From a virus: a stretch of 15,696 nucleotides of DNA. The notes under the pieces are model-generated. The model did no database searches. It was not told where the DNA came from and saw only the letters and a program-made list of their open reading frames with translations. Shown here piece by piece: positions 67-15,696 of this stretch (positions are counted from its first letter, which is position 1; each line of letters starts with the position of its first letter). The translations under genes were made by a program, and so were the position numbers. The stretch is taken from IMG/VR virus record IMGVR_UViG_3300027863_000015; one strand, 5' to 3'.

Positions 67-78
67 CCTTGAAATTCC

Positions 79-276: not shown

Positions 277-356
277 GGTGGGACAAAAGTGGGACAGGAC
301 AGACCAACGGATTCCAAAAGGATCATTTCCCAGGTGGGACAAATGGAGGTGGGATA
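277..356 (+). promoter_or_regulatory. Array of four RGTGGGAYA motifs in the int leader, candidate arm-type Int or Xis binding sites
   Basis: GGTGGGACA 277-285, AGTGGGACA 288-296, GGTGGGACA 333-341, GGTGGGATA 348-356. All lie between the int promoter and the int start codon. Confidence 0.5.
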
Positions 357-358
357 AA

Positions 359-1576
359 ATGGCCAAATGGAAAAGCGCCGGTAAAGGGGTCAGGTTTCGG
401 GAGCATGAAACCCGGAAATACAAGGGTCAGCCTGACAAATATTTCACCATCCGCTATAAGGTTGACGGGAAGCTGGTGGAAGAGGGTCTGGGTTGGAGTT
501 CTGAGGGTTGGAACTTAACCAAGGCAGTGACAGAGCGGGAGAAACTCAGACAGGGCCACAGGACAGGTGAAGGCCCCGCTACCCTAAAAGAGAAAAGGGA
601 ACTGGCCCAAGAGAAACGCCAGGTGAAAGAAGCCGAAAAGGAGCGCCTTCGCCGGGAGTCCTTGACCATCGGGGAATTTTTTGAAGGGCGTTATCTCCCT
701 TGGGCCAAAGAGCATAAGAAAACCTGGGATGATGATTTCCTGCATTTCCACAAACACCTAAAGCCCCGTTTTGGCGAGAAGACTTTTGATGCTATCTCCC
801 CCTTTGATGTTGAGAAAATGAAATTGGAATTGAAAAAAGGCACAAGCAAGCAGGGTAAGCCTTACTCCCAGGCCACTATTAAGCATCAACTTGTCTTGCT
901 CAATCGGATTTATAATCTGGCCAAAAGGTGGGGAGTGTATGAAGGCGCAAACCCCATGGACCGGGTAGAGGTCCCCAAGCTGGATAACAAAATAACAGAG
1001 TATTTTGCCGAAGAGGAATTAGTCCGGCTCATGGAAACCCTGGATAAGTGGCACAACCGGGATAGCGTGGCGTTTGTCAAATTCGCGCTGTTCACCGGCC
1101 TAAGACGGGGTGAACTCTTCAAGCTAACCTGGGATGATGTAGATTTAGAGCGGGGTATGGTGACACTCAGGGAACCCAAAGGGAAGAAGACACAGACCCT
1201 TTTCATCAGCCCCCAGGCTATTGAAATTTTGCAAGAGCTTGATAGGTCCTCCCCCTTTGTTTTTCCGGGGAAGGGAGGCAAGCAAAGAACCGACTTCAAA
1301 GGCCCTTGGCTTAGAATCCGCAAGGCCGCAGGGTTGCCGGAGAATTTTCGCTTCCATGGCTTGCGGCATAATTTCGCTTCTCGCTTGGTAAGCAACGGGG
1401 TTGACCTGCTGGTAGTTAAGGAACTCCTTACCCACAAGGACTTCAAGACGACTCAGAGATACGCCCACCTATCGCCGGGGGCCTTGAAGGAAGCGGCCCT
1501 GAATAGCGGGGAACTTCTCAAGCCCAAGGTCAAAGAAGAAGCGATGGCGGAAAATGGGGGGATGGTTCGAAAATGA
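359..1576 (+). CDS. int: Tyrosine recombinase / phage integrase
   Basis: The C-terminal catalytic signature is HGLRHNFASRL...THKDFKTTQRYAHL (R, H-x-x-R, Y). The N-terminal GVRFRE...YFTIRYKVDGK resembles an arm-binding beta domain. I prefer ATG 359 because GGAGG at 345-349 lies 9 nt upstream. The track start at 278 merely translates the motif array. Confidence 0.9.
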   Translation: MAKWKSAGKGVRFREHETRKYKGQPDKYFTIRYKVDGKLVEEGLGWSSEGWNLTKAVTEREKLRQGHRTGEGPATLKEKRELAQEKRQVKEAEKERLRRESLTIGEFFEGRYLPWAKEHKKTWDDDFLHFHKHLKPRFGEKTFDAISPFDVEKMKLELKKGTSKQGKPYSQATIKHQLVLLNRIYNLAKRWGVYEGANPMDRVEVPKLDNKITEYFAEEELVRLMETLDKWHNRDSVAFVKFALFTGLRRGELFKLTWDDVDLERGMVTLREPKGKKTQTLFISPQAIEILQELDRSSPFVFPGKGGKQRTDFKGPWLRIRKAAGLPENFRFHGLRHNFASRLVSNGVDLLVVKELLTHKDFKTTQRYAHLSPGALKEAALNSGELLKPKVKEEAMAENGGMVRK

Positions 1577-1857: not shown

Positions 1858-1889
1858 TCCCCTAACCCCCCGCCCCCTGGAATTTTATG

Positions 1890-1925: not shown

Positions 1926-2139
1926 GAGGGAACGTATTGCAGGGGAATATGTATCTTAGAGAATGAATTTGATAGCTTGACCGCTATCGGGCGATTTTTA
2001 TAGCCATCTATAAGTAATGAATCTGCCATTACTTTATGGACGCATCACAAGTAACATTTTTCGTCAAGTAGTGATCCAGGTAATACGTACCTTGATTGGT
2101 AGAAAAACAGAAGCAGCATCGAAAGTCCAAAATTAGTGC

Positions 2140-2180
2140 TTGACAAAGTAGTTGGGTGGTGTTTAAAGTTAATCTATAAA
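2140..2180 (+). promoter_or_regulatory. Early promoter region
   Basis: TTGACA at 2140-2145 (within TGCTTGACA), with TAAAGT 18 bp downstream. An overlapping alternative is TTGGGT at 2152-2157, a 17-bp spacer, then TATAAA at 2175-2180. Confidence 0.45.
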
Positions 2181-2205
2181 ATTAACTAAATAAGGGGGTC
2201 CAAAA

Positions 2206-2532
2206 ATGCCATGGAATAGCACTGATAGAGTAGTACGGATCAATGGGAGACCATTGAAGAAAAAGGAGAAGGAACGTGCACTAACCAAAGCTGAAAAAGC
2301 TTTTTCATATGGCTTTGTGTTCGGTTACAACGTTATGGCTGACTTGGCGTTTGCAACGGTACCCGTACCGGGTGTTGATATCAACCCCTACATCCACGAG
2401 TTCCACCCCAAGATCGAAGAACTCTTCGAACAATATGATTATTCCGGATCAATAACGGAGTTGGAGTTTATTGAGAGACTCGTCAACCTCTATAAGGAGT
2501 ATGAAAATGCCCAGGAAGCCCACAATCAATGA
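2206..2532 (+). CDS. Hypothetical protein (108 aa), no recognisable motif
   Basis: ATG preceded by AAGGGGG with a 7-nt spacing. It lies in an AT-rich segment and overlaps the next gene by 26 nt. Confidence 0.5.
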   Translation: MPWNSTDRVVRINGRPLKKKEKERALTKAEKAFSYGFVFGYNVMADLAFATVPVPGVDINPYIHEFHPKIEELFEQYDYSGSITELEFIERLVNLYKEYENAQEAHNQ

Positions 2533-2728
2533 AATTTTGGAGAAGCGCTTTCTCTCCGAAACCGATCTTGAACGGCTTGGCCTTCGGTCCCGGAAGACCA
2601 GTCAAAATTTAAGGAGCAGGGGAGTTGACCCCCTGCCCTATGTCAAAGTCGGAAGCTCGGTCAGGTATCCGGCGGACGCGGTCCGGGCCTACTGCGAGAA
2701 GCGTACAGTCGAACCCCAGGCCGAATAG
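2507..2728 (+). CDS. AlpA/Xis-family helix-turn-helix protein (excisionase and/or transcriptional activator)
   Basis: LSETDLERLGLRSRKTSQNLRSRGVDPLPYVKVGSSVRYPADAVRAY fits the MerR-like excisionase-type HTH pattern from memory. I prefer ATG 2507 because AAGGAG at 2494-2499 lies 7 nt upstream. Confidence 0.65.
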   Translation: MPRKPTINEILEKRFLSETDLERLGLRSRKTSQNLRSRGVDPLPYVKVGSSVRYPADAVRAYCEKRTVEPQAE

Positions 2729-2836
2729 ATAGAGTGGTAGTTCGGAAGTTTGGAACAGGTCCCCCCTGTAATTCCAGCCCGCGCACCCTCTCCACCATAG
2801 ACCAAAATGAAGGTTTTGCATGGAGGAAATAACCTC

Positions 2837-4084
2837 ATGAGTAGAGGTGCGCCAGAGGAACGCCCTCGTTATCTTAAAGAGTTCTTAAAGTGGGCGGCAA
2901 AGTTCGATGATCTTTGCTCAGGCGATAGGCTGGTGCTATGCGCGCTCTTCGGGTATCTGGGTAAGAATGATTCTTGCTGGCCGACACAGAAAATGCTTGC
3001 CGAACACACCGGCCTTTGCACAAAACAGGTTAAAAGGATTTTGGGAAAACTTGCCAGTAAGAAAATTATCAAGTGCACGAAGAGAAACCGCGGCAAAAAC
3101 ACCAATGAATATCAATTCGTTTTTGAACAATCTGGCCAAACCAAAGGGGACATAGATGTCCCTTTCAAAGGGGACGCGGATGTCCCCTCTAAAGGGACAC
3201 AGGTGTCCCCTGCAAAGGGGACATCCAGGGTCAGTAAAACCCCGGAGATGCAGGCCAGCCGTAGGCCAGCGGGTGCGGAATATATCAAGAATAGATCAAA
3301 GAATAAGTCAGTCAATCAGTCAGGGACGGACGGACTGACAGACGAAAAAACTTCAGATAAAAAACCAGCATCGGAAGAAGTTGTTTCCCTGTCCTGGGAT
3401 GATTCTAATTCATCTCTGGGAGAAGAAGTTAATGATGTTTTCGCCCCGCGGCCTGGCGCGCCGCCGCGCCTCGCCCCTGAACAGATTAACGCCCTTTTCG
3501 GCGGGCCGGGTCCCCGGCCTGTAAATCTTCTGAACTGTCCTGTAGGGGATTTTGCCCTTCGTGATCTTACTTCCCCTTTTAAGAAAGGGCCGGGAGTCAT
3601 AGAAATCCTTGGCTTCGATCCTGACACCCCACAGGCTCAATGGTTTGAAGACGCGCTAAAGGAATTTTACAGAGAAGTTATCAACCGGCATTGGAACCCA
3701 AACGCAGATCATCCGCCCGGCGCGCCGTTCCGCCGCCTTTTCTACCGGGCCGGGCGATCCGGCCTGCTTTATGAGTTCGGTTTCCGGCCCCTCAGCCCTG
3801 AGCAACAGGAAGCGCAACAGCGCGAAGCAGAGCGCCAGGAAGAAGAAGCGGCTGAAGCCGCCCGGCTTAGGGAAGAAGAACGCCGCCGACTGGCCGAAAA
3901 AGAAGCCGAGTACAAGGCGTTCATCAAACGGCGCGTTGTCCAAAATTATCTATCGTGCATGGGAATCCCGCCAAGGGACTATAAGAACCATCTCCGCGAG
4001 ATTGCGGCCCGGCTCAATGGACGGGCTACGCTTAACGCGGTTGAACAGTTCATGCGGGCGAAGCTGCAAAATGAGGGTCACTAA
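2837..4084 (+). CDS. Replication initiator-like protein with N-terminal winged-helix/HTH and C-terminal Glu/Arg-rich coiled coil
   Basis: The N-terminus DRLVLCALFGYLGKNDSCWPTQKMLAEHTGLCTKQVKRILGKLASKKII matches the CWPS-type HTH of plasmid and phage Rep proteins (HTH_36-like, from memory). The gene contains an iteron array. ATG 2837 has GGAGG 10 nt upstream, and ATG 2807 is the alternative start. Confidence 0.6.
   Translation: MSRGAPEERPRYLKEFLKWAAKFDDLCSGDRLVLCALFGYLGKNDSCWPTQKMLAEHTGLCTKQVKRILGKLASKKIIKCTKRNRGKNTNEYQFVFEQSGQTKGDIDVPFKGDADVPSKGTQVSPAKGTSRVSKTPEMQASRRPAGAEYIKNRSKNKSVNQSGTDGLTDEKTSDKKPASEEVVSLSWDDSNSSLGEEVNDVFAPRPGAPPRLAPEQINALFGGPGPRPVNLLNCPVGDFALRDLTSPFKKGPGVIEILGFDPDTPQAQWFEDALKEFYREVINRHWNPNADHPPGAPFRRLFYRAGRSGLLYEFGFRPLSPEQQEAQQREAERQEEEAAEAARLREEERRRLAEKEAEYKAFIKRRVVQNYLSCMGIPPRDYKNHLREIAARLNGRATLNAVEQFMRAKLQNEGH
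3143..3233. repeat. Iteron array, candidate origin of replication inside the rep gene
   Basis: Units of about 24 bp start at 3143, 3167, 3191 and 3214, each AAAGGGGAC-N6-GTCCCC. Three are full dyads and the fourth is a half site. An AT-rich stretch follows at about 3280-3370. Confidence 0.6.
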
Positions 4085-4159
4085 TGCAGGGACTCATGGG
4101 AGAAATAGGGTAATACTCTGTAATCGCTTGCAAAATAACGAAAATGGAGGGTGTTGACC

Positions 4160-4807
4160 ATGCCAGTTTTCACATTCTGGAGTGCGGCGGCGATCCGAGC
4201 CTATCTCCTGGCCCGCGTGGAACCGGGGCCGGGCGGTTGTTGGCTGTGGACCCTGAGCTTAGACCGCCGGGGATATGGGTTGTGTCGCGGGATTAGCCGC
4301 AGTGAGCGGCGGGCGGCAAGGCTGAGCTATAGGGCTTTTGTGGGGCCGATCCCACCAGGCCATGACATTCACCATCTTTGTCAGAATCGTAATTGCATCA
4401 ATCCCGCCCACCTTGAGCCTATGGCCCATGGCGTTCATCTGCGGTTGCACGCCGCCACGGGTGCATGGGCGGGAGAGAAGAACTCCCAGGCGAAGCTAAC
4501 GGAAGAGGAAGCCAGGTTCATCAAGGTGGCGGGGCCGCATGTTTCGGCCCAAGCCCTGGCGGATCGTTTTGGCGTCTCCCTGAGCACGGTTTACTATGCC
4601 CGGCGGCATGGCTGGAATCATGTGGATTTGCCGGACTTCCCGCCCCGGCCCTTGGCTGAGGTCTTGCAGGCCGGGCGGGAGGCGAGTCAAAAGGCCCTGG
4701 CCGCCCTTCAGGGAGTGCAACGGGACCGGCGGGAGCGGGGAGAACCACAGCCGCCGCACATTGAGGAATATATCACCTTGGCCAGGGCGTGCGCCGGTCT
4801 TTCGTGA
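4160..4807 (+). CDS. HNH endonuclease (HNH_3-like) with C-terminal HTH
   Basis: CWLWTLSLDRRGYG...GHDIHHLCQNRNCINPAHLEPMAHGVH is the classic HNH_3 signature. The downstream SAQALADRFGVSLSTVYYARRHG is HTH-like. I prefer ATG 4160 because GGAGG at 4146-4150 lies 9 nt upstream. Confidence 0.8.
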   Translation: MPVFTFWSAAAIRAYLLARVEPGPGGCWLWTLSLDRRGYGLCRGISRSERRAARLSYRAFVGPIPPGHDIHHLCQNRNCINPAHLEPMAHGVHLRLHAATGAWAGEKNSQAKLTEEEARFIKVAGPHVSAQALADRFGVSLSTVYYARRHGWNHVDLPDFPPRPLAEVLQAGREASQKALAALQGVQRDRRERGEPQPPHIEEYITLARACAGLS

Positions 4808-5158
4808 ACATGCGGCGGGGAGGGAGGATAAACTGGGTCATAGCTGCGCACGTGGCGGGAGGGAAGAAGCCCCTGAGAACTCTACCTGACTGGCATAACT
4901 CAAGGAGAGGCCATGGAACCCTTAATGACCTGGAAACCCACGCCGCAAGCCGATGAACGGGGCCGAAGGCCACTGGCCGTGAACATATCATTAAGGGATA
5001 ATCGGCCCGAATAGAGGTGCCGACTTTTGGCCAGGGAAAAGGTCTTCTTTTCAATAGGTTATCATGCTATGCAACTGACACCTAATCAGGTGGTCTTTAT
5101 ACATAACTTCTTGTAAAAGCAAGTGGTTAATATGAGCCATAAGAAGAACTGTCAGAAT

Positions 5159-5178
5159 ATTCCCACCATTGTCCCACT
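5159..5178 (-). promoter_or_regulatory. Inverted pair of GTGGGA motifs just upstream of the late promoter -35
   Basis: The reverse complement reads AGTGGGACA-AT-GGTGGGAAT. The 11-bp phasing matches the att-arm pairs, and the pair ends 7 bp before TTGACA at 5185. Confidence 0.45.
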
Positions 5179-5181
5179 TTT

Positions 5182-5214
5182 TGCTTGACAGGATGTACAA
5201 CCATAGTGTAACTT
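5182..5214 (+). promoter_or_regulatory. Candidate promoter of the packaging/head operon
   Basis: TGCTTGACA at 5182-5190 gives a perfect -35. The -10 is poor (TAACTT at 5209-5214), which fits an activator-dependent promoter. Confidence 0.35.
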
Positions 5215-5391
5215 CGGGAACCATAACATCGGGAGTGCGGCAAGCTCAACAGGGACCCCACGCCTTTTTTCAGGGGCCTCTGTCATGACTCCGATAAGGG
5301 CGGCTCACGCCACGCCCGAAATCCCCAAACGATAAACAGCGTTTTCGTTTAACGCGTTGCAGACCATTCGCAACGGGGGTTGAGGTGCATT

Positions 5392-5751
5392 GTGAGCCGT
5401 ACCAAGTGGGACAAGCGCGATCCCGATTACTGTGACCTTGAGGGCAAGCCGATCTATGACCGGCGGGCCAGGGTCCATATCTGGACGGCCAAACTCAAGG
5501 CCGAATTCTTCTCCGCCCGCAAGCCTACCCACGCACAACGCCTGCAAATCGCCGCGGCGGTATGTCTGATTCTTGACCTATCCGCCGCCCATGAGGGCTT
5601 CAACTCCGGCAAGCCCCTACCGAAGGACTATCTCCCCAAGCTCAACGCCCTGAGAGCTATCCTGGCCGGATTCCGCCCCAAGGCCCCGAAGGGCAAGGCC
5701 GTCCCTAAAGACTCCCCAAGCCTGGCCGCGATCCTTGGGGGTGAAGCATGA
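5392..5751 (+). CDS. terS: Putative small terminase subunit, called by position only
   Basis: It lies immediately upstream of TerL and overlaps it (ATGA at 5748-5751). The frame contains no ATG. GTG 5392 has GAGGT 5 nt upstream, and the track start is TTG 5380. Confidence 0.4.
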   Translation: MSRTKWDKRDPDYCDLEGKPIYDRRARVHIWTAKLKAEFFSARKPTHAQRLQIAAAVCLILDLSAAHEGFNSGKPLPKDYLPKLNALRAILAGFRPKAPKGKAVPKDSPSLAAILGGEA

Positions 5752-7520
5752 TCCGCCAGCTTCTTCACCCTCTGTTAGCGCCTGAACCTGAGTCCGGGGC
5801 TTCCCGCCCGTTTCAACCCGGCAACCCTGGCGGGCCTGGCCGCGGCAACCGGCGGGATCGGGACGGCGAGATTCTGGACAGGTGGAACGCTCCCGGCCCC
5901 TGTGGGTTTTGGGCCTGGGTTGCAGACGTGCGCCCCCACGTCTTGCAGCGCAATAACCAATACGGGCCATGGGAACCGACTGAAGAACAGCGCCGGGCCA
6001 TTGACAACGCTTTGGCCGTTGACGCCCATGGCCGCTTCCTGCATACCCTGAACCTGCTTATCGAACCGCGCCGCCATGGGAAGAGCACGGCCTTTGCCCT
6101 GGTGGTCTTGTGGCTTTCGACTTCCCGCCGCAATCACGTTTGCCAGCTTTTGGGAAACACGGCGGACCATTCCCGGCGCACTCAGTTCAGAACCTTGCGG
6201 CGGATCATCGCCAATACCCCGCGCCTGGCCCGGCTGATCCCAGACGAGTTTATTTTCACCAATGAAATCACCTTCCCGCCCCTGCAATCGGCCATTCAAC
6301 TTGGGGAGGGGTTGAGCCTGTCAAGCGCCTTCGGGGACCGGCTTAATTGTCTGTGGGTTTCCGATCTTCACGCCTCCCCCGATCTTGGCCCCTTCAACGC
6401 TTTGCAGGCCAGCTTGTTAGACAGTGAAGACTCTCTGATCCTGATTGACAGTAACGTTGACCCCACGGACGGCCACGTTCACGGCCTGCAAAAGGAAGCG
6501 GCAAGCGACCCAACAATCTACGCCCGCCATGTCTGTTATAGGGACCTGGCCGAATTTGAAACAAAGGCTCCGGCCTGGATTGACCGGCAAAAGGCCCGGC
6601 GGCTGCAACGGACGGCCCTACCCGCCGACTTCAAGCGGGATATTCTTGGCCAAAGGTCAGACGCCAAGAACGCCCTTTTCCCTACAGAGTTTATCAAGGC
6701 GGCCCGCGCTCCGTACAAGATTCCCGTGGCCGATCTGAAAGAGCTTGTCAAAGGCCGGGCTTACAAGGTGGGCGGCGGGCTGGACCGGGCCAAGTCTTTA
6801 TCACCCCTGGCGGGCGGGGATTCGACCGTCTGGACGGTTGTGGCCAAGGTTGCTTCCCCTGAGCATGGCGAGCCGGAATTTTATGTTCTTAACCAGGTGG
6901 TCTTCACCCTCAACACCTCACGGGCCATTAAGAAGGCGATCCTGCAAGATCATGAAAGGTACGGCCTGGACGCTGTGACCCTGGAAAATTACGAGATTAC
7001 GGACCTGGCCCCATGGCTGGCGGACGTGAAGATTCCCCATGAAATCGTGACCGCCTCAGAAAAAATGCAGAATTCGGCCTTCCCAGAAATGGCCCGGATT
7101 TTCAGAGAAGAGCGGTTTCACTTTTCCAAGGACCTGAAGACCTTCGAATCTGAACTCAAGGCTTTCGTGTACCAGGCGGGCCGGGCGGGGAAGTATTCCT
7201 TCGGAGCCGCCACGTCTAAACAGCATGACGATACGGTTTACTCAACCTGTCATGCAATTTGGGCCTTGCGGGAAGCGGTCCTGGCCGCCTATGTCCTGGG
7301 GTCCTTCACTTGCCGGAATAAGTCCCCGCGCCGTCAACTCTGTTACCTCATGGGCGGCGGGAAGCAGCTTCTTTGCGCCGATTTCTGCCAGGCCCACAAG
7401 CAGGTGGAAGCCATGTTTCAAGAGTTCAAGAAGATCAGGTTAGACGATGATCTGAACTTGCATGAGTTTTTCGAGAGCAAGGTACGCTTTGACGGGGCCA
7501 GGATTTACCAGGCCGCATAA
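5748..7520 (+). CDS. terL: Terminase large subunit
   Basis: It has a Walker A-like EPRRHGKSTAF, a Walker B-like LILIDSNVD and a C-terminal nuclease-type HDDTVYS. Size and position before the portal gene fit. Confidence 0.8.
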   Translation: MIRQLLHPLLAPEPESGASRPFQPGNPGGPGRGNRRDRDGEILDRWNAPGPCGFWAWVADVRPHVLQRNNQYGPWEPTEEQRRAIDNALAVDAHGRFLHTLNLLIEPRRHGKSTAFALVVLWLSTSRRNHVCQLLGNTADHSRRTQFRTLRRIIANTPRLARLIPDEFIFTNEITFPPLQSAIQLGEGLSLSSAFGDRLNCLWVSDLHASPDLGPFNALQASLLDSEDSLILIDSNVDPTDGHVHGLQKEAASDPTIYARHVCYRDLAEFETKAPAWIDRQKARRLQRTALPADFKRDILGQRSDAKNALFPTEFIKAARAPYKIPVADLKELVKGRAYKVGGGLDRAKSLSPLAGGDSTVWTVVAKVASPEHGEPEFYVLNQVVFTLNTSRAIKKAILQDHERYGLDAVTLENYEITDLAPWLADVKIPHEIVTASEKMQNSAFPEMARIFREERFHFSKDLKTFESELKAFVYQAGRAGKYSFGAATSKQHDDTVYSTCHAIWALREAVLAAYVLGSFTCRNKSPRRQLCYLMGGGKQLLCADFCQAHKQVEAMFQEFKKIRLDDDLNLHEFFESKVRFDGARIYQAA

Positions 7521-7531
7521 GGGAAAAGAAC

Positions 7532-8851
7532 ATGCTTTTTCAAAGCCAAGTCCCGATTATTTTCAACCGCCTGAACCTTCAGGCCGACAGCGCCGCTTCT
7601 TTGGCGCGCAAGACAGAGACGGCCAAGCGGCTTGACCTGTACCATGACGCTCAGCTTGACCACCTGGAAACCAGGCTGAATGAGCTTTTCTCCGATCCTT
7701 CCGCCATGGTCAAGGTCTGCCTGAACGTGGTTAAGAAGGTGGTCAACAACCTGGCCCAAGTTTACCGGGAAGCCCCGGTTCGGATTATAGAGGGAAACGA
7801 CAGCGATAAGGAGCTTTACTCCGGGATTGTCGAGGGCCTGGCCCTGGACGTGAAGCTGAAGCTGGCCAGCCGGTACGCCAAGCTCTTAAAGACCATTCTC
7901 CTTCGCCCGGTTTGGCGAAATGAACGCCTGGACCTGGACATATTGACCGGGAACATCCTGGACGTGGAAACCGGGGAAAGCCCGGAAATCTTGTCAAAGG
8001 TCCTGGTTACGGATTTCGGCACGTCTGACAAGATTGAAGAGGTGGAATACTCCTACTGGACGCCGGAAACCTGGCAACGCCTGGACTACCGGGGCCAGGT
8101 GAAAGAAGAAGCAGCGAATCCTTACGGCGTCCTACCCTTCCTTGCAGTTTTCGATTATCCGCCGCCCTCTTCAAGCTTTTGGCTTCCGGGCGGAGACGAT
8201 CTTGTCAGCCTTCAGGAAGCCGTAAACCTGAAGCTGACTGATCTTCTCTATCTCCTGTCAACCCAGTCCTTCGGCGTGGGGTATATCAAGGGCGGTCAAG
8301 GCGGCGGGAGCCTCAAGGTTGATCCCGGCGCCCTGGTGGAACTCCCGGAAAACGGAGAAATCGGCTTTGCCAATCAACAGGCCCGGATTGAAGAAGTGGT
8401 GGGAGCCATTGACAAGCTAATCAAGTGGGGCTGTGTGAGCCATGGCCTTTCCGCCGCTTCCATGTCAACCGATCCCCAGGAAGCAAGCGGGTTAAGCAAA
8501 ATTGTGGATACCCGCGAACTGGCGGAAATGCGAGCTGAAGACGTGGCCCTGTGGCGTTCCTATGAAAAGCGGCTTTTTCAGCTTGTGCGCGTGGTTTGGA
8601 ACGCCCACAACACAAAGAAGCTTTCCGAGTCGGCCACACTCAAGGTTGACTTCGCCGATCCCCGCCCCGAAGTTGACCCCAAATCACAGGCCGAAGCCTG
8701 GGAGAAGCTCTTGGGGTTTGGCGTTATCTCCCCTGTAGATATTGCCATGCAACAAAACCCGGACCTGAAGACGCGGGAAGAAGCCCTGGCGTATCTCATT
8801 CAAGTGCAGGAAGAAAGCCGGGAACTGAACTCCGGTAGAGAAGTTTTATAA
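7532..8851 (+). CDS. Portal protein
   Basis: A 439-aa ORF directly after TerL and before the scaffold and capsid genes. The call rests on position and size. I did not recognise a specific motif. Confidence 0.65.
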   Translation: MLFQSQVPIIFNRLNLQADSAASLARKTETAKRLDLYHDAQLDHLETRLNELFSDPSAMVKVCLNVVKKVVNNLAQVYREAPVRIIEGNDSDKELYSGIVEGLALDVKLKLASRYAKLLKTILLRPVWRNERLDLDILTGNILDVETGESPEILSKVLVTDFGTSDKIEEVEYSYWTPETWQRLDYRGQVKEEAANPYGVLPFLAVFDYPPPSSSFWLPGGDDLVSLQEAVNLKLTDLLYLLSTQSFGVGYIKGGQGGGSLKVDPGALVELPENGEIGFANQQARIEEVVGAIDKLIKWGCVSHGLSAASMSTDPQEASGLSKIVDTRELAEMRAEDVALWRSYEKRLFQLVRVVWNAHNTKKLSESATLKVDFADPRPEVDPKSQAEAWEKLLGFGVISPVDIAMQQNPDLKTREEALAYLIQVQEESRELNSGREVL

Positions 8852-8895
8852 CCCGAAAAATCCGCCCTCCCAGGCGTTAAATGGAGGTTTAAAAA

Positions 8896-9291
8896 ATGCC
8901 TGACAAAGCCAATGACCAAAATACGCAGGATCAGCCCGGCGGGAACGCACCCGATAAAGGCGACGGTAAAGACCGGGCGGATCAAAACCAGGAAAAGACT
9001 GTCCCCTATACCCGCTTTCAACAGGTAAATGAGGCCAAGAAGCAGGCGGAAACCGAGCTTCAGGCCGTGGCGGACGGTCTTAAGGAAGAAGTCCCTGAAG
9101 AATTCCGGGAGTTAATCCCGGACTTGCCGCCCGGCCAGCTTATCAAGTGGCTTCGGCAAGCCCAGGCCAAGGGAATTTTCAACCCGCCCAAGGCCGACGC
9201 CCTGGATTCCAAACGGCCCGGCGATAAGAAAGCGCCGGACTTTAACGCCATGACCCCTCTTCAAATGCGTGAGGCGGGGTACAAGACCTAA
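8896..9291 (+). CDS. Scaffolding protein
   Basis: 131 aa with a charged, low-complexity N-terminus. The VPYTRFQQVNEAKKQAE helix resembles scaffold proteins I recall. It lies between portal and capsid, with GGAGG as its RBS. Confidence 0.55.
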   Translation: MPDKANDQNTQDQPGGNAPDKGDGKDRADQNQEKTVPYTRFQQVNEAKKQAETELQAVADGLKEEVPEEFRELIPDLPPGQLIKWLRQAQAKGIFNPPKADALDSKRPGDKKAPDFNAMTPLQMREAGYKT

Positions 9292-9303
9292 ACGAGGTGA
9301 ACA

Positions 9304-10224
9304 ATGTCTCTGACTCTTTTGGAAGCTGCGAAACTTTCTCAGACCCCGTTGCAGCGCGGGGTGATTGAAGTCTTCCCGCGGACTTCCCCGATCTTGGAAC
9401 GGTTGCCCTTCCTGGACGTGGCGTCCGACTCCTATAAGTACAATCAGGAAGAGGCCCTTCCGGGAATCGCCTTCCGGGGAATAGGCGAAGGCTACACCGA
9501 ATCTACCGGGGTGATTAACCCCGTAACCGAAGCCCTGGCCATTATGGGCGGCGTCTCCGATGTTGACCGCGCCCTGGTGAAGACTCAGGGGAATATCAAC
9601 AACCTTCGGGCTATTCATGACGGCCTGAAGGCCAAGGCCGCGGCTCTGTTCTTCACCAAGAACTTTATAAAGGGCGACACGGATGAAGACCCCAAGGGCT
9701 TTGACGGCCTGGAAAAGCGGTTGACCGGCGGCCAGGTGATTGACGCCGGGGCCACTTCCGGGGGAGACGCCTTGACCCTGGCCAAGCTTGATGAACTCAT
9801 TGACGCGTTGGCGGGCGGCCCGGACGTTCTTTTCATGAACAAGACCATGCGCCGGAAAGTCAACACCCTGATTCGGGCGGCTAACCAGGCCATTGAAACC
9901 GTTTCGGACGCCTTTGGCCGCCTGCTTACCGCTTACGCTGGGGTTCCTATCGCGGTTATCGAAAGCGATGAACAGGATAACCCGATCCTGGCCTTCGATG
10001 AAGCGGCCCCTGGCGGCGGGTCTTCCGTCTGTACCAGCATTTACGCCGTCCGCTTCGGCGCGAAGGAGTATGTCTCCGGCCTGCAATGCGGCAAAATGGA
10101 CGTGATTGACATGGGCCTGTACTCCGGCGGGACGGCCTACCGGACGCTGATTGAGTGGATTTGCGGCCTGGCCGTCTTTCATCCCCGCGCCGCCGCCCGT
10201 CTCCGCGGGATCAAGAACGCTTAG
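9304..10224 (+). CDS. Major capsid protein
   Basis: 306 aa. The N-terminus LLEAAKLSQTPLQRGVIEVF...LPFLDV...YKYNQEEALPGIAFRGIGEGY resembles a capsid family seen in small phages (from memory). It follows the scaffold gene and has a GAGGTG RBS. Confidence 0.7.
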   Translation: MSLTLLEAAKLSQTPLQRGVIEVFPRTSPILERLPFLDVASDSYKYNQEEALPGIAFRGIGEGYTESTGVINPVTEALAIMGGVSDVDRALVKTQGNINNLRAIHDGLKAKAAALFFTKNFIKGDTDEDPKGFDGLEKRLTGGQVIDAGATSGGDALTLAKLDELIDALAGGPDVLFMNKTMRRKVNTLIRAANQAIETVSDAFGRLLTAYAGVPIAVIESDEQDNPILAFDEAAPGGGSSVCTSIYAVRFGAKEYVSGLQCGKMDVIDMGLYSGGTAYRTLIEWICGLAVFHPRAAARLRGIKNA

Positions 10225-10242
10225 GCGGAAGGAAGGTGAACC

Positions 10243-10737
10243 ATGTTTGATGTAGCCCATGAACTGAAAGACGCGGGCCTGGTGGCTTCCAGTCTGGCCG
10301 GAACGGTTGACGGTCAGGCCAAGGTGGTCAACCTGGGGCGTGAACTGGTGGAAGGGAAGCTGGTTATTGACGTGTCGGCCCTGGAAATTGACTCCGATAA
10401 CGAGCTTTACCGGATCAAGCTGCAAGGGTCCGCCGCCCATGACTTCAGCGCCTATGTGGAAGACCTGGCCATTTTGGAGCTTGGGGCCAAGGAAGTCCTT
10501 GGCGGGGATCAGGATTCCCAGGCGGGCCGGTATGTGGTGCCTTTCACCAATGGCAAGGGCCTTTACGTCTGGCCTTACGTCCGCCTCTACACTGAGGTTT
10601 CCGGGTCTGTGGCCACAGGGATTGATTTTTCCGCCCACCTTGTGCGGGAAGTCACCACGCGGCCTTTGACCGGCTTAACGACTACCACCACCACAAGCAC
10701 AACTACCACCACTTCAACCACAACCACCACTACCTAA
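10243..10737 (+). CDS. Capsid-adjacent protein (possible decoration or head accessory) with a poly-Thr/Ser C-terminal tail
   Basis: 164 aa with an AAGGAAGGTG RBS. It ends in TTTTTTSTTTTTSTTTTTT. The functional call is by position only. Confidence 0.45.
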   Translation: MFDVAHELKDAGLVASSLAGTVDGQAKVVNLGRELVEGKLVIDVSALEIDSDNELYRIKLQGSAAHDFSAYVEDLAILELGAKEVLGGDQDSQAGRYVVPFTNGKGLYVWPYVRLYTEVSGSVATGIDFSAHLVREVTTRPLTGLTTTTTTSTTTTTSTTTTTT

Positions 10738-10975
10738 CGTGGTGTAACGATATGGGCGGGACGCGTGTCGTGGCGCGCCCCTACCAGACAGGCCAGGGGA
10801 TGAAGCCTGACGCCTGGCGGCCAACAGGCGTGAATTGTGGGCAACTCCTACGTTGTCGTGGTCAATGCAGCAAGCGGAATCCCCGGAGGGCCTTGATAAT
10901 CCTCCCAAAGCTCTCCGGGGTGACTGCCCAGGTTGCAATCGCTTGCAAGAAATGAAGTTAACTTACTGAAATATC

Positions 10976-12118
10976 ATGGAAAACTACTTTAACGAGCGCT
11001 ATAAGTTCACCCATAGGCTTGAGGGCGTGGTCAACGCCTACGGGGTTGATATTGCTCAGACCTTGGCCGGGGCCTTAGAAACCGTTACCGGCAAGCTCAT
11101 GAGGTTGACCGCGGCGGCGGAATCAACCCCTTCCCTGGTAAGGAAGCGGGAGTTTCTCCTTAAGCGGAAGGCCGAAATTGAAACCGCCCTGGCCGAAATC
11201 TACCGGGATATAGGGGAAGACCTGAAGGCCAGGGCCGTTGAGACGGCCATGGTCACGCCCGAAATCATCAATGGGATCATGGAGGGGAGCCTTCCCGAAG
11301 GCGTGTCAGCCGGGTTGAAGTGGTCACACGTCACTAAGGATCGGGTCTTGGCCTGGTGGGATTCGGCCCAGGTTGAAGGAACTTTCTTTGCCGACTACCT
11401 GAAGAAATTGGAAACATCCGCCGCCCAAAGGATTCTTCAGGCGTCGCGGGAAAGCCTGATTCTCGGAGACAACTTCAAAGTTACCGCCAAGAAGCTTCAA
11501 GACGCCCTGGATATTGGCAGACATTCGGCTATGGGGTTAGCCAAAACTGCGATCCATAGCGCGGTGAATTGGGCCGAGCGGGAAGTTTATGAACAAAACT
11601 CGGATCGGTTCAAGAGTTACCGCTTCCAGGCCGAGCTTGACCGGGGGACCTGTGAATATTGCGCCTTCCTGGACAGCCGGGAATATGCCCTTGAAGACGC
11701 TCCCATGCCGCCCGTGCATTTCGCTTGCCGATGCTGGGTATTCCCGGTCTTGAAGGACGTGATAGTTGACGGGAAAACCGTTCCCTTTGAAGACGCCTTG
11801 GGGCCGGAATATGACAAGGTGGCCCGGCGGATTTCCCGCCTTGAGACTGATCCGCGGACGGTGCATCACCGGGACGGGACAACTTCCACGGCCTACCGGG
11901 GCTATGAGGTCAAGTTTGTGGACCGGAGAATGAACTACCGGCAATGGATGGAGTCCATGGTTAAGAGTTCAGACCCCGGAGACGTGGCCTTTGCCAGGGA
12001 AGCCCTTGGCCCTACCCGATTTAACCTGGTGGAATCCGGCAAGCTGAAAATTGAGTCCCTGTACTACGGCGGTAAGGTGCGAACCATCAATGAACTGAAG
12101 AGGTTAATGGAATCATGA
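10976..12118 (+). CDS. Head morphogenesis / minor capsid protein, Mu F / SPP1 gp7 family
   Basis: AELDRGTCEYCAFLDSREY...PPVHFACRCWVFPV matches the D-x-R-T-C-x-x-C...H-x-x-C-R-C signature of this family. No Shine-Dalgarno sequence is visible upstream. Confidence 0.75.
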   Translation: MENYFNERYKFTHRLEGVVNAYGVDIAQTLAGALETVTGKLMRLTAAAESTPSLVRKREFLLKRKAEIETALAEIYRDIGEDLKARAVETAMVTPEIINGIMEGSLPEGVSAGLKWSHVTKDRVLAWWDSAQVEGTFFADYLKKLETSAAQRILQASRESLILGDNFKVTAKKLQDALDIGRHSAMGLAKTAIHSAVNWAEREVYEQNSDRFKSYRFQAELDRGTCEYCAFLDSREYALEDAPMPPVHFACRCWVFPVLKDVIVDGKTVPFEDALGPEYDKVARRISRLETDPRTVHHRDGTTSTAYRGYEVKFVDRRMNYRQWMESMVKSSDPGDVAFAREALGPTRFNLVESGKLKIESLYYGGKVRTINELKRLMES

Positions 12119-12561
12119 CCGACCTGATTGCTTACCCGGACGCGGGATATAACACCTGGATAGATGAAGACGGGGCGGCGGAGCACTTTGCAAACCGTCT
12201 TCATACCGATGATTGGTTAGCGGCGGACGCGCCAACCCAGGCCGCAGCCCTGCTTATGGCCTTCCGGTCCCTGAATGAGCTTGAGTTCAATCTGTGGTGG
12301 AAGCTTGATAAGACCCTGGCGGATCGTTATACGGACGCCCAAAAAGCCGAAATCCTGGCCACCCTGAAGCAGGCTCAGTGTGAAGAGGCGCTTCATTTGC
12401 TCCGGTATGATACTGAGGGCGTCGGCGTTCAAGCCGTGAGCCTGGGAGGGATGCTTTCAGTCAGGCTTGACCCTGGCCAGAATCCGCCCCGCCACAGTCA
12501 AAGGGCTATTGATATTTTGCGGTCACTCCTCAAGGGCCGGTCTGTGGCCCGGTTCAGGTAA
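12115..12561 (+). CDS. Head-tail adaptor/connector-like protein (gp6 / DnaT-like pattern)
   Basis: YPDAGYNTWIDEDGAAEHFANRL...DWLAADAPTQAAALLMAFRSL resembles the N-terminal pattern of head-tail connector proteins. Its ATG overlaps the preceding stop (ATGA). Confidence 0.5.
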   Translation: MTDLIAYPDAGYNTWIDEDGAAEHFANRLHTDDWLAADAPTQAAALLMAFRSLNELEFNLWWKLDKTLADRYTDAQKAEILATLKQAQCEEALHLLRYDTEGVGVQAVSLGGMLSVRLDPGQNPPRHSQRAIDILRSLLKGRSVARFR

Positions 12562-12565
12562 GAAG

Positions 12566-13345
12566 ATGAAAGGCGTCTGTGAAAAATGCGCCCGCCGGGA
12601 AGGGTGCGATACCCCTTGCAGGCCGGTTGAACTCTACCTTGCCCAGGACAACTTGACCGTTTTCGAGAAGACGGGAATAGGCGAAAATGGGGAGGAAATC
12701 ACCATCATTTTCGCCCGCTCCCGCGAAATCCCGGAATCCATGCTACCCCAAATTTCGGATAAGACTGAAGAACCCATAGACGTTTTCACCACGGAAGCGG
12801 ACTCCCCTTTTGCCGGATTCAACCCTGACCTGAAGCAGACCGGCGTCTTCATAGACCGCTTCTTCAACAAGTGGTCTTATGAAGACCTGGCGGTCAAGTA
12901 CGAGACGACCGTTGAAGGAGCCAAAAAGCTCTATCATGCCGCCGTCAAGCGTCTCCTGAACGTGGTAGAGGCCCTGGACGGGAAGAACGGCCCACGCAAC
13001 TTCGAACCCTGGAAAAAGATGGTGGAAGAGCGCTCAGGGAGTATCCCGGCGGGAATGAGGTGGTTCCTGCTTAACAAGCTCTTCCAAATGCGGCCCGCCG
13101 AAATCGCCCGCATGGAAGGCGTCAAGCACCCTTCCGAAGTCCGGGGCCTGATTATCCGGGTAAGCGATCAATTAAGCTGTGGGGAGATTTCCATTTTCGA
13201 GAAGGACCCGGAACAGGCGGAAGCGGCCAAGGCACGCCTTGAGGTTAAGAGAAAACAGCGCCGGGAGAGACACGCCAAGAACAAAGATTCTATAAATGCT
13301 AAACGGCGTGAGTCATACGGCCGGAAGAAATCCAAAGAAGGCTGA
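12566..13345 (+). CDS. Cys-cluster plus sigma-70 region-4-like HTH DNA-binding protein with a highly basic C-terminus
   Basis: N-terminal CEKCARREGCDTPC (C-x2-C-x5-C-x3-C). FIDRFFNKWSYEDLAVKYETTVEGAKKLYHAAVKRLL resembles sigma region 4.2. A second HTH-like segment is RPAEIARMEGVKHPSEVRGLIIRV. I prefer ATG 12566 because the track start at 12467 overlaps the previous gene by 95 nt. Confidence 0.55.
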   Translation: MKGVCEKCARREGCDTPCRPVELYLAQDNLTVFEKTGIGENGEEITIIFARSREIPESMLPQISDKTEEPIDVFTTEADSPFAGFNPDLKQTGVFIDRFFNKWSYEDLAVKYETTVEGAKKLYHAAVKRLLNVVEALDGKNGPRNFEPWKKMVEERSGSIPAGMRWFLLNKLFQMRPAEIARMEGVKHPSEVRGLIIRVSDQLSCGEISIFEKDPEQAEAAKARLEVKRKQRRERHAKNKDSINAKRRESYGRKKSKEG

Positions 13346-13456
13346 TCCACACGCAATCTATGTTTTTCAAGAGTGACTTCCCATAACCCTTTATTTCTCC
13401 CTTAAAACTTGCTATGCTGGCTTTCCGAATAATCTCTGGGGCAAAGGGGAAATTCC

Positions 13457-14101
13457 ATGAAAAAATTACTGCCAATTTCTATTATTATGATGTTTTGGTT
13501 TGCCGGGATAGCGAATGCCCAATCAGCTAAAGAGGCTATAGAGGCTCTGAAAAAACTTGAGTCAAGGGTACAGGTGGGCATTTCTTATAAAGACTATGGA
13601 CCAGCTTTGGGAGAAACACATTATAAAGTAAAAAACTATTTAGATAGTCCTGAGTCAAAAAAGAATTCTAAGTTAAGAAATTCAATTGAGAAGGCGTTAA
13701 ACCATTATATTTATGCAAATGATATATGGAAATATAAATTCGCTGGCAAAGTTTCTGATATAATATATAGAGAAGAACCGCCTTTACCACACCAATATCA
13801 ATACAGCCCTAATAGTGCTACTAATGATTTAATAAGGAAAGGTGACGAACGAAGGAAGGAGGCTGCAAAGAGATTTGTTGATCAGATTATGAAAGACTAT
13901 CGTAAAGTTAAATTAACCTCTTATGGCGGAGGTGGAACATTTATATCAATTTCAGATGCCTTATCGGTTATTTGGAATGAAGCGTCTGATGAAATAAAAA
14001 TAGCATCTAAGTTACTAACTTCTGATGAAATTAAGACTGAAGATACAGAATCAGAAGATGAATCAACCCCACGCCCTTCAAAGTTAAAGACAAAAAGATA
14101 A
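13457..14101 (+). CDS. Secreted/periplasmic protein of unknown function (214 aa)
   Basis: Sec-type signal peptide MKKLLPISIIMMFWFAGIANA|QS. RBS AAAGGGGA lies 6 nt upstream. The gene is very AT-rich, unlike the element core. Confidence 0.65.
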   Translation: MKKLLPISIIMMFWFAGIANAQSAKEAIEALKKLESRVQVGISYKDYGPALGETHYKVKNYLDSPESKKNSKLRNSIEKALNHYIYANDIWKYKFAGKVSDIIYREEPPLPHQYQYSPNSATNDLIRKGDERRKEAAKRFVDQIMKDYRKVKLTSYGGGGTFISISDALSVIWNEASDEIKIASKLLTSDEIKTEDTESEDESTPRPSKLKTKR

Positions 14102-14200
14102 TATCAAGATTTATGAGCAAAGCTAACTAAGCCTAATAAATCTTAACAATAGCCGAAGAGATTGTATGTGTACCAATACCAAATGGGAGGAATTATTTTT

Positions 14201-14407
14201 ATGCCTTATTATGTATATCAAATTCATACTGATAGCACGAATAACCGCCTGTATAATTCTTTTGATAATTTACGAGACGCCGAAAAATTAGAAAAACAGA
14301 TGTTGGAAGGGCGGCGTATCGGAGATAATTATTTTGTCGCAATTGTTAAGGCAGAAAACGATCAAGAGGCGAAAATTAAGGCTGATAGCTTGCGTCCGCA
14401 TCCATAG
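14201..14407 (+). CDS. Small hypothetical protein (68 aa)
   Basis: I prefer ATG 14201 because GGGAGG at 14185-14190 lies 10 nt upstream. The track start is TTG 14162. No motif recognised. Confidence 0.45.
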   Translation: MPYYVYQIHTDSTNNRLYNSFDNLRDAEKLEKQMLEGRRIGDNYFVAIVKAENDQEAKIKADSLRPHP

Positions 14408-14411
14408 CTTT

Positions 14412-15329
14412 TTAAACATGAGAATAAATAGTTCTTGACGATATTACTTCTTTTATTGCCCGGTCAAGATTCATTTTATTAATGGCAAGACTATAAAATT
14501 CCGGGTCTCCTTTGTAATAATTCATAGAACGATAAAATACTGAGGCTCCGCCTTTGATCTTACCCGTAGTAAATTCATCTCTATTAATTTTTTCCCACCT
14601 CATAAAGGGTTGACGCTTGCCATAAATATCTATTACTTCTGCAAAATAACTTCCAAGGCGATCCAATTCATTGTTAGGGTCTTGCCATAGTAAAATACTT
14701 TCCATAGAATAACCCATCGATAGTTGTTTTAATGCTTCTTCCCTGAGTCTCTCAGATGCTTCTCTTAATGAAACAAAGGCATCATCGTCTGTGGGGCGGG
14801 TGTCTGTGAAAGCTAATAACTCATTAATTGCTACGGTCAAGTTGAAACTGGCGGATTGGTCAACGGGTTGCCTCGTATTCTCTGATTGCAAAAACTGAAG
14901 CAAGGCGGGTTTTAGAGCGCTCCGGCATTCTCGATACTTCTGTGTCGCGGCATCAAAATCACTGAGTCGATCCGGATCAATAAAAGGCCGAAGCTCAAAA
15001 ATTGCAGTGTCGTGCTGAACCTTATGGTGAGTTATCAGATAATGCGGGTCTATACTGCCACCGGTAATTTGAGTCATGGCTTCGGCAAAGGCTGAACGAA
15101 ACTTAGCGGCGGCTTCGCGTTTTGCCTTCTGAAGAAAATCAGGTTGCCCCTCTTGCGTTATGTTGACGTCACGGCCAGCCTGTATATTCTGGGAACTAAT
15201 GCCGCCACTTTGTTGCTGAACATGACTCGGTTTTTTTAGCATCCACCCCACTATGGCTACTATTATAGCGACACCAGCGCCGCTAAAGAGCCATGTCTTA
15301 TTATCTATGACCCAATTGAGCGTGTCCAT
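14412..15329 (-). CDS. Membrane-anchored protein of unknown function (305 aa)
   Basis: One N-terminal TM helix (WLFSGAGVAIIVAIVGWML), then a Gln/Ser-rich linker (QQQSGGISSQNIQAGRDVNITQ) and a domain of about 240 aa with no motif I recognise. It is the only minus-strand gene, and its stop lies 4 bp from the stop of the 68-aa ORF. Confidence 0.65.
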   Translation of the reverse strand: MDTLNWVIDNKTWLFSGAGVAIIVAIVGWMLKKPSHVQQQSGGISSQNIQAGRDVNITQEGQPDFLQKAKREAAAKFRSAFAEAMTQITGGSIDPHYLITHHKVQHDTAIFELRPFIDPDRLSDFDAATQKYRECRSALKPALLQFLQSENTRQPVDQSASFNLTVAINELLAFTDTRPTDDDAFVSLREASERLREEALKQLSMGYSMESILLWQDPNNELDRLGSYFAEVIDIYGKRQPFMRWEKINRDEFTTGKIKGGASVFYRSMNYYKGDPEFYSLAINKMNLDRAIKEVISSRTIYSHV

Positions 15330-15497
15330 TCCTCTTCATCCCTTAAGCGCGCTGCTTTTTGGCGCATCCCCTGTAAGGCGTTGGGCTTTCCGTTCTTCCT
15401 AATTGTGACAAAGTACCACGAATTGTCCAGTTTTACAAATCAACCTCGAAAACCAGTTAAGGGTGAAAAAATATTTCTCACAGATTTTTTCCTCAGC

Positions 15498-15590
15498 CCC
15501 ACTTATGGAAAATTCTTAGCGGATCAGAGGCCTATGGACCCTGGTGGGACAAAAGGTGGAATAGTTTGAAGGTGGGATATAAGTGGGATA
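15498..15590 (+). promoter_or_regulatory. Right-arm cluster of GTGGGAYA-type motifs
   Basis: GGTGGGACA 15543-15551, GGTGGAATA 15555-15563, GGTGGGATA 15571-15579, AGTGGGATA 15582-15590. There is also an inverted degenerate copy, CCCACTTAT, at 15498-15506. Confidence 0.5.
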
Positions 15591-15604
15591 AAATCTCAAC
15601 TTCC

Positions 15605-15635
15605 AAATAAAAAAGGGCCAGCATCTCAGCTAACC
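15605..15635 (-). terminator. Rho-independent terminator of tRNA-Pro (right repeat copy)
   Basis: Same sequence as 36-66, shifted by 15569. Confidence 0.6.
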
Positions 15636-15647
15636 CCTTGAAATTCC

Positions 15648-15696
15648 TGGTCGGGACGAGAGGATTTGAACCTCCGACCCCCTGAACCCCATTCAG
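15648..15696 (-). tRNA. tRNA-Pro(GGG), 3' portion (about nt 28-76). The 5' part would lie beyond the window end.
   Basis: The reverse complement reads CTGAATGGGGTTCAGGGGGTCGGAGGTTCAAATCCTCTCGTCCCGACCA. It has an anticodon loop A-U-GGG-G-U with G37, a 5-nt variable loop, a T-arm GGAGG/TTCAAAT/CCTCT, acceptor CGTCCCG, discriminator A and encoded CCA. It closely resembles E. coli tRNA-Pro as I recall it (GGGTCGGAGGTTCGAATCCTCT...ACCA). Confidence 0.8.

Follow-up and report, generated by a model that had tools for sequence, protein, structure and literature searches.

Prophages carry morons, also called lysogenic-conversion genes, of the type of lambda bor and lom. Accessory hotspots are established for P2/P4 and for the enterobacterial phage-inducible chromosomal islands (PICIs), and satellite and prophage defence hotspots are understood here in the sense of PMC9122126. 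The capsid-forming PICIs (cfPICIs), with a median of 14 kb and 19 proteins (PMC10085698), are the described satellites with which the present element is compared. This element is the IMG/VR virus record IMGVR_UViG_3300027863_000015, a stretch of 15,696 nucleotides (nt) referred to below as the window. Our analysis concerns the region between its head module and its attachment (att) site, where three open reading frames (ORFs) encode a secreted protein of 214 amino acids (aa; gene A), a protein of 68 aa (gene B) and, convergently, a membrane-anchored protein of 305 aa (gene C), as had already been read from the bare sequence. That reading, the original prediction, placed the three genes in an AT-rich cargo island and proposed that they form one envelope-associated system for defence, exclusion or host conversion.

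We hold with moderate confidence that we are dealing with the att-proximal end of a capsid-forming satellite, in which A and B are resident genes and C, located in an adjoining exchange slot, is a candidate single-gene anti-phage protein. According to this proposal, A, B and C would not be one system. A would function in the envelope or periplasm and have superinfection exclusion or lysogenic conversion as its most likely role, as suggested by the hypervariable centre of the protein, its lipoprotein paralogues and the location of family members at prophage ends. B would be a small cytoplasmic protein that also travels alone, and C would be a membrane-anchored abortive-infection or exclusion protein encoded by a single gene. 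As a hypothesis, defence or exclusion is a plausible function of C, where only domain fusions and neighbourhoods speak for it, and a less plausible one of A and B.

An exchange slot beside resident genes

The comparison of related satellites shows 14413–15604 to behave as an exchangeable slot, and the interval between the stop codon of B and the phage attachment site (attP) would be the site of gene exchange. The homology between the window and its relative L003 stops exactly at 14412, at the stop codons of B and C, and resumes only at 15605–15696 (90% identity), with nothing between. The slot of L003 holds a CoiA-like PD-(D/E)xK nuclease and a lipoprotein paralogous to A, that of L008 holds an A paralogue together with proteins of 311 and 102 aa of unknown function, and in L007 a C-like gene is kept, at least in its 3′ part. 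PADLOC scans of the L003 and L008 cargo returned nothing beyond a weak 52-residue match to DruB, and no promoter or leader of the slot genes is shared between the window and L003 or L008.

A leader of about 100 nt occurs twice within L003 (9815–9911 and 10687–10772, 78–92% identity), upstream of the CoiA-like nuclease and of the A-paralogue lipoprotein, respectively, which points to duplication of a promoter or regulatory cassette.

The genes preceding the slot have a different history. Related satellites share the gene order terL, portal, p131, capsid, p164, MuF, adaptor, p259 and A, and this A-containing synteny holds in L003–L008 and L014. A occupies the same position in all four satellite lineages compared; B follows it in three of them (with 52–66% identity in L003 and L007) and is missing in L008. 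At the DNA level (blastn), the window and L003 align without interruption, at 82.5% identity, over 12000–14412. Pairwise Nei-Gojobori estimates of synonymous divergence (dS) were 0.37–0.93 for A and B versus 0.34–1.38 for terL, portal, capsid, MuF, adaptor and p259. The ratio of nonsynonymous to synonymous divergence (omega) was 0.17–0.52 for the two genes (A, 0.17–0.40; B, 0.38–0.52) versus 0.09–0.25 for the backbone, and at the protein level A and B diverge about two to three times faster. Their G+C content is 34–38% in every relative, with G+C at third codon positions (GC3) of 0.26 for A and 0.34 for B in the window, whereas the backbone has GC3 of 0.59–0.73. With omega well below 1, A and B are genuine genes subject to purifying selection, and since they co-diverge with the backbone they are not recently acquired cargo. 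Taken together, these comparisons show A and B, as judged from their substitution patterns and composition, to be conserved, selected, persistently AT-rich, moron-like accessory genes.

In the light of these data, it is quite improbable that A, B and C constitute one envelope-associated defence, exclusion or host-conversion system acquired as recent AT-rich cargo. The genes are indeed adjacent, AT-rich and att-proximal, they occur together in near-identical copies from several samples, and L007 carries A and B along with the 3′ end of its C-like gene. However, L003 has A and B with the CoiA-like nuclease instead of C, and L008 has A without B and C; B is found without A or C, and A-family genes without B or C; A and B co-diverge with the backbone; and the AT-rich composition extends only to the C-terminal part of C (module M3, see below). 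The behaviour of the three genes is not that of one cassette, and the system-level hypothesis is therefore unsupported. The idea of an accessory hotspot, which the original prediction had applied to the whole region, holds for the slot of C only, as contents differ between relatives there, but A is constant and B is absent only in L008. Other parts of that prediction fared better. The region is indeed the att-proximal accessory part of a satellite-like element, and the proteins are envelope-associated (signal peptide in A, membrane helix in C) and could not be assigned to any family. Their description as orphans stands as far as significant family annotation is concerned, but all three have homologues.

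Another alternative takes A, and possibly B, for core genes of the satellite life cycle rather than host-benefit cargo; A might then be a periplasmic factor for release, for interference with the helper or for blocking helper re-infection, expressed with the late head operon. We consider this possible but doubtful. The position of A directly after the head genes, adaptor and p259, in the same orientation in four lineages, speaks for it, as do the backbone-like dS and purifying selection. On the other side stand the GC3 of A (0.26 versus 0.67 in the preceding operon), omega values of A and B two to three times those of structural genes, the occurrence of the A family in a prophage end and in chromosomal islets outside satellites, and the dispensability of B in L008. 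In addition, 73 nt from the 3′ end of p259 recur directly behind A in L008 (7780–7852 and 8676–8748, 74% identity), so that diverged direct repeats bracket A; the arrangement looks like the scar of a recombination event in which A was gained or exchanged as a cassette.

By inspection, the predicted signal peptide of A has an n-h-c organization (MKK, LLPISIIMMFWFAGI and ANA↓QS) with an AxA site and no lipobox cysteine, as expected of a Sec-exported periplasmic protein, and it is kept across the A family. The mature part comprises a conserved N-terminal domain, a hypervariable centre and a conserved C-terminal helix. Among 26 homologues, the three closest lineages (88%, 60% and 51% identity) are all in related satellites, and distant members (28–49%) lie in prophage and chromosomal contexts without B or C. 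One of these, in a prophage-like region, is immediately followed by the integrase and tRNA-Leu, and another adjoins tRNA-Glu among metabolic genes of a chromosome. The family is found in metagenome-assembled genomes (MAGs) labelled delta proteobacterium, Planctomycetes, Nitrospiraceae, Betaproteobacteria and Geobacter, and most homologues examined are AT-shifted relative to their own contig. The collection scans for this family yielded one viral-contig locus and metagenome contigs that were mostly short, and hence no large co-occurrence statistic. An AlphaFold2 (AF2) model built from the family alignment (predicted local distance difference test, pLDDT, 84; predicted template modelling score, pTM, 0.75) shows a compact helical bundle with a small beta element. 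Foldseek returned no significant match for it in PDB or BFVD (none with E<0.07), only generic helical bundles, and the PDB sequence profile search with the family gave E>0.4. A role of A as a spanin or other lysis protein was rejected, as no lysis gene was found among the scanned ORFs of the element and the predicted fold is compact rather than an extended coiled coil.

Convergently oriented A paralogues are present at 10013–10576 (−) of L003 and 8762–9328 (−) of L008; they have 30–35% identity, and an LIGC lipobox replaces the Sec type-I site. The protein thus exists in a soluble and a lipid-anchored version, and some satellites have both. In five family members (P0019, P0021, P0026, P0027 and P0033), the signal peptide is followed by an extra conserved N-terminal domain of about 60 residues, which precedes the A domain (..VETTxGxIYxGTIxKMDENEVIxKTATG..RIPRS..). 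The A homologue in L003/L024 (P0010, MBM4300780.1), a secreted protein of 216 aa, bears the GenBank name “restriction endonuclease subunit S,” which looks like an annotation error and is without support in Pfam, NCBIfam, PADLOC or the structure model.

For B, 10 homologues were found. One of them (65% identity) occurs without A in the chromosomal island L015, beside a gene for an Mrr_cat-like protein. At 7203–10208 of L015, this stand-alone homologue and the Mrr_cat-like protein are accompanied by two proteins of unknown function (209 and 172 aa) and an HU-like protein, and the islet continues with a HEAT-repeat protein of 1047 aa and a protein of 719 aa. It may represent a defence-island-like neighbourhood.

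Gene C and its three modules

Gene C is separated from B by 4 nt between the stop codons, and a copy of its product differing at one residue (99.7% identity) is present both in an integrated element and in a 15.6-kb circular contig. The phmmer search of C against 1.8 billion representatives gave 343 matches at E<=0.001, which fall into three non-overlapping classes corresponding to the modules M1, M2 and M3. Most matches cover M1 alone, either as proteins of 55–75 aa or as the N-terminus of proteins of 100–400 aa; as this distribution indicates, M1 is a promiscuous predicted membrane anchor. M2 usually takes the form of a protein of about 140 aa with a transmembrane (TM) helix (TM-M2), and M3 defines a separate family of TM-M3 proteins, with M3 in tandem in P0047, P0055 and P0128. 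The closest homologues of C (P0002–P0006, 63–80% identity) end at residue ~176, and at this residue GC3 falls within the C ORF from 0.46 in M2 to 0.28 in M3 (M3 versus M1–M2, Fisher p=0.0013). These two observations indicate that a TM-M2 gene and an AT-rich M3 gene were fused to give C. A Rosetta-stone test for adjacent M2 and M3 genes revealed no case in L020–L023, L032 and L053. An apparent extension of the P0002 match past the stop codon of that gene was rejected as not real homology.

The fusions of M2 in other proteins provide a functional clue. M2 lies C-terminal to TIR in P0007 and P0106 and to a Cap5-like HNH domain in P0038 and P0075; the PADLOC and Pfam profiles that identify these fusions cover the TIR and HNH partners, not M2 itself. 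Elsewhere, M2 thus occupies the C-terminal, sensor-side position behind effector domains. In C, the positive residues after the hydrophobic helix and the cytoplasmic nature of the TIR and HNH partners suggest that M2–M3 face the cytoplasm, where they would sense or oligomerise, and the M1 anchor would localise or execute the response.

The AF2 model of residues 61–305 (pLDDT 91.7; M2 above 90) comprises the M2 helical bundle and the alpha/beta M3. Foldseek found no significant match for it in PDB, and M2 retrieved only generic four-helix bundles (E>0.8); over the A and C models, the best E-values were 0.08–0.9. The conserved residues of M2 (D94, D107, R114, D126, R136 and P141) and the M3 motif IYGK together match no nameable motif. 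A minimal HD phosphohydrolase was considered for M2 and rejected, as the histidines are not conserved and no HD-fold match was obtained. No significant match to Pfam, PHROGs or NCBIfam was found for A, B or C, and neither Pfam nor PADLOC detected a TIR or HNH catalytic domain in C. In the only noteworthy PADLOC match among the three proteins, residues 5–72 of C aligned with positions 2–66 of the 203 of the profile PDC-M43A (E=3.3e-5); the match is thus not full-length, and neither a partner nor any other PDC-M43 component is encoded nearby.

The neighbourhoods of C homologues are mixed. P0002 adjoins a pair of genes for an AAA_21 ATPase and DUF4276, P0003 follows phage SLT and amidase (lysis) genes, P0036 (a TM-M3 protein) lies between the integrase and the S24 repressor in the int-cI accessory region of a prophage, and P0039 is in an unremarkable chromosomal region. 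It could be argued that C serves a housekeeping-type function in the membrane, or that it stabilises the integrated satellite as a toxin-like addiction module, given that TM-M2 and TM-M3 occur singly in chromosomal regions without obvious defence neighbours, that P0036 stands beside a BrnT/BrnA toxin-antitoxin pair, and that no enzymatic motif was recognised. We consider this unlikely, because the slot in which C resides changes its content among satellites that are collinear elsewhere, M2 has been joined in other proteins to TIR and Cap5-like HNH, which are typical immune effectors, and no cognate partner of antitoxin size is conserved with C.

The possibility that the ORFs are non-functional and that the AT-rich stretch consists of foreign DNA in decay or of att-arm sequence without coding function can be practically dismissed. 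In its favour are the lack of annotated domains and the 62-aa ORF at 15381–15569, which is probably spurious; few stop-free frames arise by chance in AT-rich sequence. For A, B and C it is refuted by homologues of conserved length at 30–88% identity, omega well below 1, the presence of Shine-Dalgarno sequences and confident AF2 models (pLDDT 84 and 92).

Several points weigh against our proposal of resident A and B genes beside a slot carrying an anti-phage protein. As no significant Foldseek match was found in PDB or BFVD, all functions are deduced from location, fusions and neighbours, and as only four satellite lineages were available, the hotspot is based on few comparisons. None of the three proteins matches a validated defence family, PDC-M43A being an unvalidated candidate matched by the N-terminal part of C only. 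Both A-family and TM-M2 genes also occur in ordinary chromosomal surroundings. Furthermore, no promoter or terminator of their own was demonstrated for A and B, the promoter scan being uninformative, and the strict positional conservation of A would also fit a function in the satellite life cycle.

The surrounding satellite and its composition

The first 127 nt of the window are identical to the last (1–127 and 15570–15696, 100% identity). Such an overlap marks a circular contig, and the window thus represents a circle of 15,569 bp that carries one attP and is not flanked by attL and attR. A copy of the element, called identical, is integrated in a chromosomal contig of 186 kb. There it follows immediately on a complete tRNA-Pro(GGG) and reads C, B, A, p259, adaptor and MuF from the tRNA onwards, and this tRNA ends exactly at the attP core. 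In the window itself, ARAGORN found no complete tRNA and Rfam gave no match. The features of the locus are listed in Table 1.

Table 1. Coordinates of the features discussed in the text (window numbering)
Feature	Position	Strand	Description
Exchange slot (variable hotspot)	14413..15604	.	Between conserved A–B and conserved tRNA/att segment
Gene A	13457..14101	+	214 aa, helical; signal peptide residues 1–21 (13457–13519)
Gene B	14201..14407	+	68 aa, without signal peptide; strong GGGAGG Shine-Dalgarno
Gene C	14412..15329	−	305 aa; hydrophobic helix at ~residues 13–30
C module M1	15150..15329	−	Residues 1–60; N-terminal transmembrane helix and QNIQAGRDVNIT motif
C module M2	14802..15134	−	Residues 66–176; helical bundle
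C module M3	14421..14792	−	Residues 180–303; alpha/beta, conserved IYGK motif
Leader upstream of A	13346..13456	+	Intergenic; 42% G+C, GGGGA Shine-Dalgarno
p259	12566..13345	+	259 aa, as called in identical copies; last backbone gene before the composition break
3′ 49 nt of tRNA-Pro(GGG), attP core	15648..15696 (=79–127)	−	From sequence and integrated copy
Terminator-like hairpin	15612..15639	−	Immediately 3′ of the tRNA-Pro fragment
GGTGGGAYA repeats near att	15543–15551, 15571–15579 (=2–10)	+	Candidate integrase arm-type sites
Tyrosine integrase	278..1576	+	Other side of attP; Phage_integrase E=1.3e-32, phrog_1 E=5.5e-65

Besides the copies listed, GGTGGGAYA also occurs at 277–285, 333–341 and 348–356, which gives six matches (five distinct) versus 0.28 expected. 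All copies are on the + strand, within about 350 nt of the tRNA fragment and on both sides of the attP core, and are probably arm sites of the integrase. Some of them fall in the 5′ end of the integrase ORF as listed (GTG at 278), the true start of which is probably further downstream.

The element encodes, in addition to the tyrosine integrase, a RepO/HTH_36-like initiator, an HNH endonuclease (HNH_3, E=6e-9), a terS-like ORF assigned by position only, terL (phrog_2, E=2e-11), an SPP1-type portal (SPP1_portal, E=8e-7), a GP7-type major capsid protein with 54–56% identity to capsids of Bacillus and Paenibacillus phages, a MuF-like head protein, an Ad1 head–tail adaptor (phrog_477, E=1e-4) and p259. 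No tail or lysis family was matched among the scanned ORFs, several small ORFs lying outside the scan and holins being hard to detect; an element of 15.6 kb has no room for a tail module. For p94 and p108, PADLOC and NCBIfam, the only libraries used for both, gave nothing meaningful. Its genes, architecture and size make the element a cfPICI-like (capsid-forming) phage satellite. Its host is probably deltaproteobacterial, the closest relative with a named source being a Deltaproteobacteria MAG.

The composition of the window was computed exactly. The G+C content is 55.0% in 1–13345, 35.7% in 13346–14801 and 46.5% in 14802–15569. In a comparison of 400-nt windows, each of the 22 within the block (0.325–0.367) is below 0.383, the lowest value among the 259 outside it (mean 0.552, standard deviation 0.049). 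Along the profile, values are mostly 52–65%, drop to 33–36% at ~13400–14800 and recover partially, to 43–49%, up to 15600. The composition shifts at the stop codon that ends the last head-module gene, and the abrupt change that the original prediction had located after 13345 is thus confirmed. Its island of 13346–15569 is AT-rich from the predicted start, but the strongly AT-rich block ends at ~14801, inside gene C, and the last ~30 nt of the interval are attP arm sequence. The leader between p259 and A is kept within the unbroken DNA alignment with L003, L007 and L008, and a consensus promoter scan of 13346–13456 found no strong site.

The last backbone gene, p259 (G+C 54.5%, GC3 0.67), has 73–83% identity in relatives, and its product resembles weakly a sigma-70 region-4 helix-turn-helix (Sigma70_r4_2, E=0.002, failing the Pfam cut-off). 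The gene, whose product has a lysine/arginine-rich tail, is conserved as the closing gene of the head module in every relative. In the mechanical ORF list it starts at a TTG and has 292 aa (12467–13345), overlapping the adaptor gene, whereas identical copies are called from the ATG at 12566. G+C is also lowered, though less strongly (40–45%), at 1801–2600, where p108 and long stretches of intergenic DNA separate int and p94 from the replication gene; this part of the satellite probably serves regulation (immunity/induction). On the strand opposite the capsid and p164 genes, an ORF of 508 aa spans 9112–10638 (−); rather than a gene, it is most likely an antisense frame poor in stops within coding DNA of high G+C.

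Comparison with described systems

Among described satellites, the element resembles the cfPICIs in its size of ~15.6 kb and in its set of integrase, replication initiator, HNH endonuclease, terS-like ORF, terL, portal, capsid, MuF-like protein and adaptor; the combination of integrase, HNH, terS–terL, portal, capsid and adaptor that is expected of them is present. It differs in the replication protein, which is HTH_36/RepO-like and not the Pri-Rep of described cfPICIs, in that no AlpA/MerR regulator was identified in it, and in its capsid, which is nearest to those of Bacillus and Paenibacillus siphophages. The cfPICIs described so far are from Proteobacteria (Enterobacteriaceae and others) and Firmicutes.

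Genes A and B share with morons their small size and autonomy, a G+C content far from that of the adjoining late operon and a position at the edge of a structural module; A is, in addition, envelope-targeted and has family members at other prophage ends. Unlike morons, which are sporadic, they are retained across a whole satellite family, they have no homology to any known moron product, and no promoter or terminator of their own has been demonstrated.

As to gene C, the homologues of its M2 module are comparable to effectors of two kinds. In P0038 and P0075, M2 sits where the Cap5-type HNH-SAVED effectors of the cyclic-oligonucleotide-based antiphage signaling systems (CBASS) carry the SAVED sensor, and in P0007 and P0106 it follows TIR, as in TIR-TM/ThsB-like proteins. 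Many effectors of both kinds have an N-terminal membrane anchor, as C has. Unlike them, C is without TIR, HNH or SAVED, no PADLOC profile covers M2 or M3, and no cyclase or other partner gene is present here.

The slot shares with satellite and prophage defence hotspots (PMC9122126) a short interval at the att-proximal end of an integrative satellite and conserved flanks, A–B and the tRNA/att segment having 82–90% DNA identity with L003. The variable gene content of such hotspots is found in 14413–15604 only, with A constant and B lost in a single lineage. Unlike hotspots recognised by their systems, the slot carries no cargo matching a known defence system. It also differs in belonging to a deltaproteobacterial MAG host lineage and another satellite family, and in having A and B as fixed neighbours.

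A far-reaching interpretation is that C founds a class of single-gene membrane-anchored anti-phage proteins, with M2 as a new sensor/adaptor domain shared with TIR and Cap5-like HNH proteins and M3 as a new alpha/beta domain with the IYGK motif, and that A represents a new secreted/lipoprotein family for superinfection exclusion, which satellites and prophages of Deltaproteobacteria, Planctomycetes and Nitrospirae would carry at their att ends and keep AT-rich, possibly so that a silencer can control its expression. We regard this as rather unlikely, and such unannotated candidates are common. If the C or A family does protect against phages, the defence repertoire would gain protein families without relatives of solved structure. 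M2 would then be a marker domain for further TIR and HNH effector variants, and the hotspot principle would extend to capsid-forming satellites of poorly studied environmental lineages. Apart from this, our analysis indicates that low G+C is an unreliable sign of recent cargo, as A and B stayed AT-rich while co-diverging with a backbone of 55% G+C. In comparison with known systems, the satellite/prophage accessory hotspot with moron-like neighbours is familiar; this example stands out by its unusual host lineage and its uncharacterised protein families.

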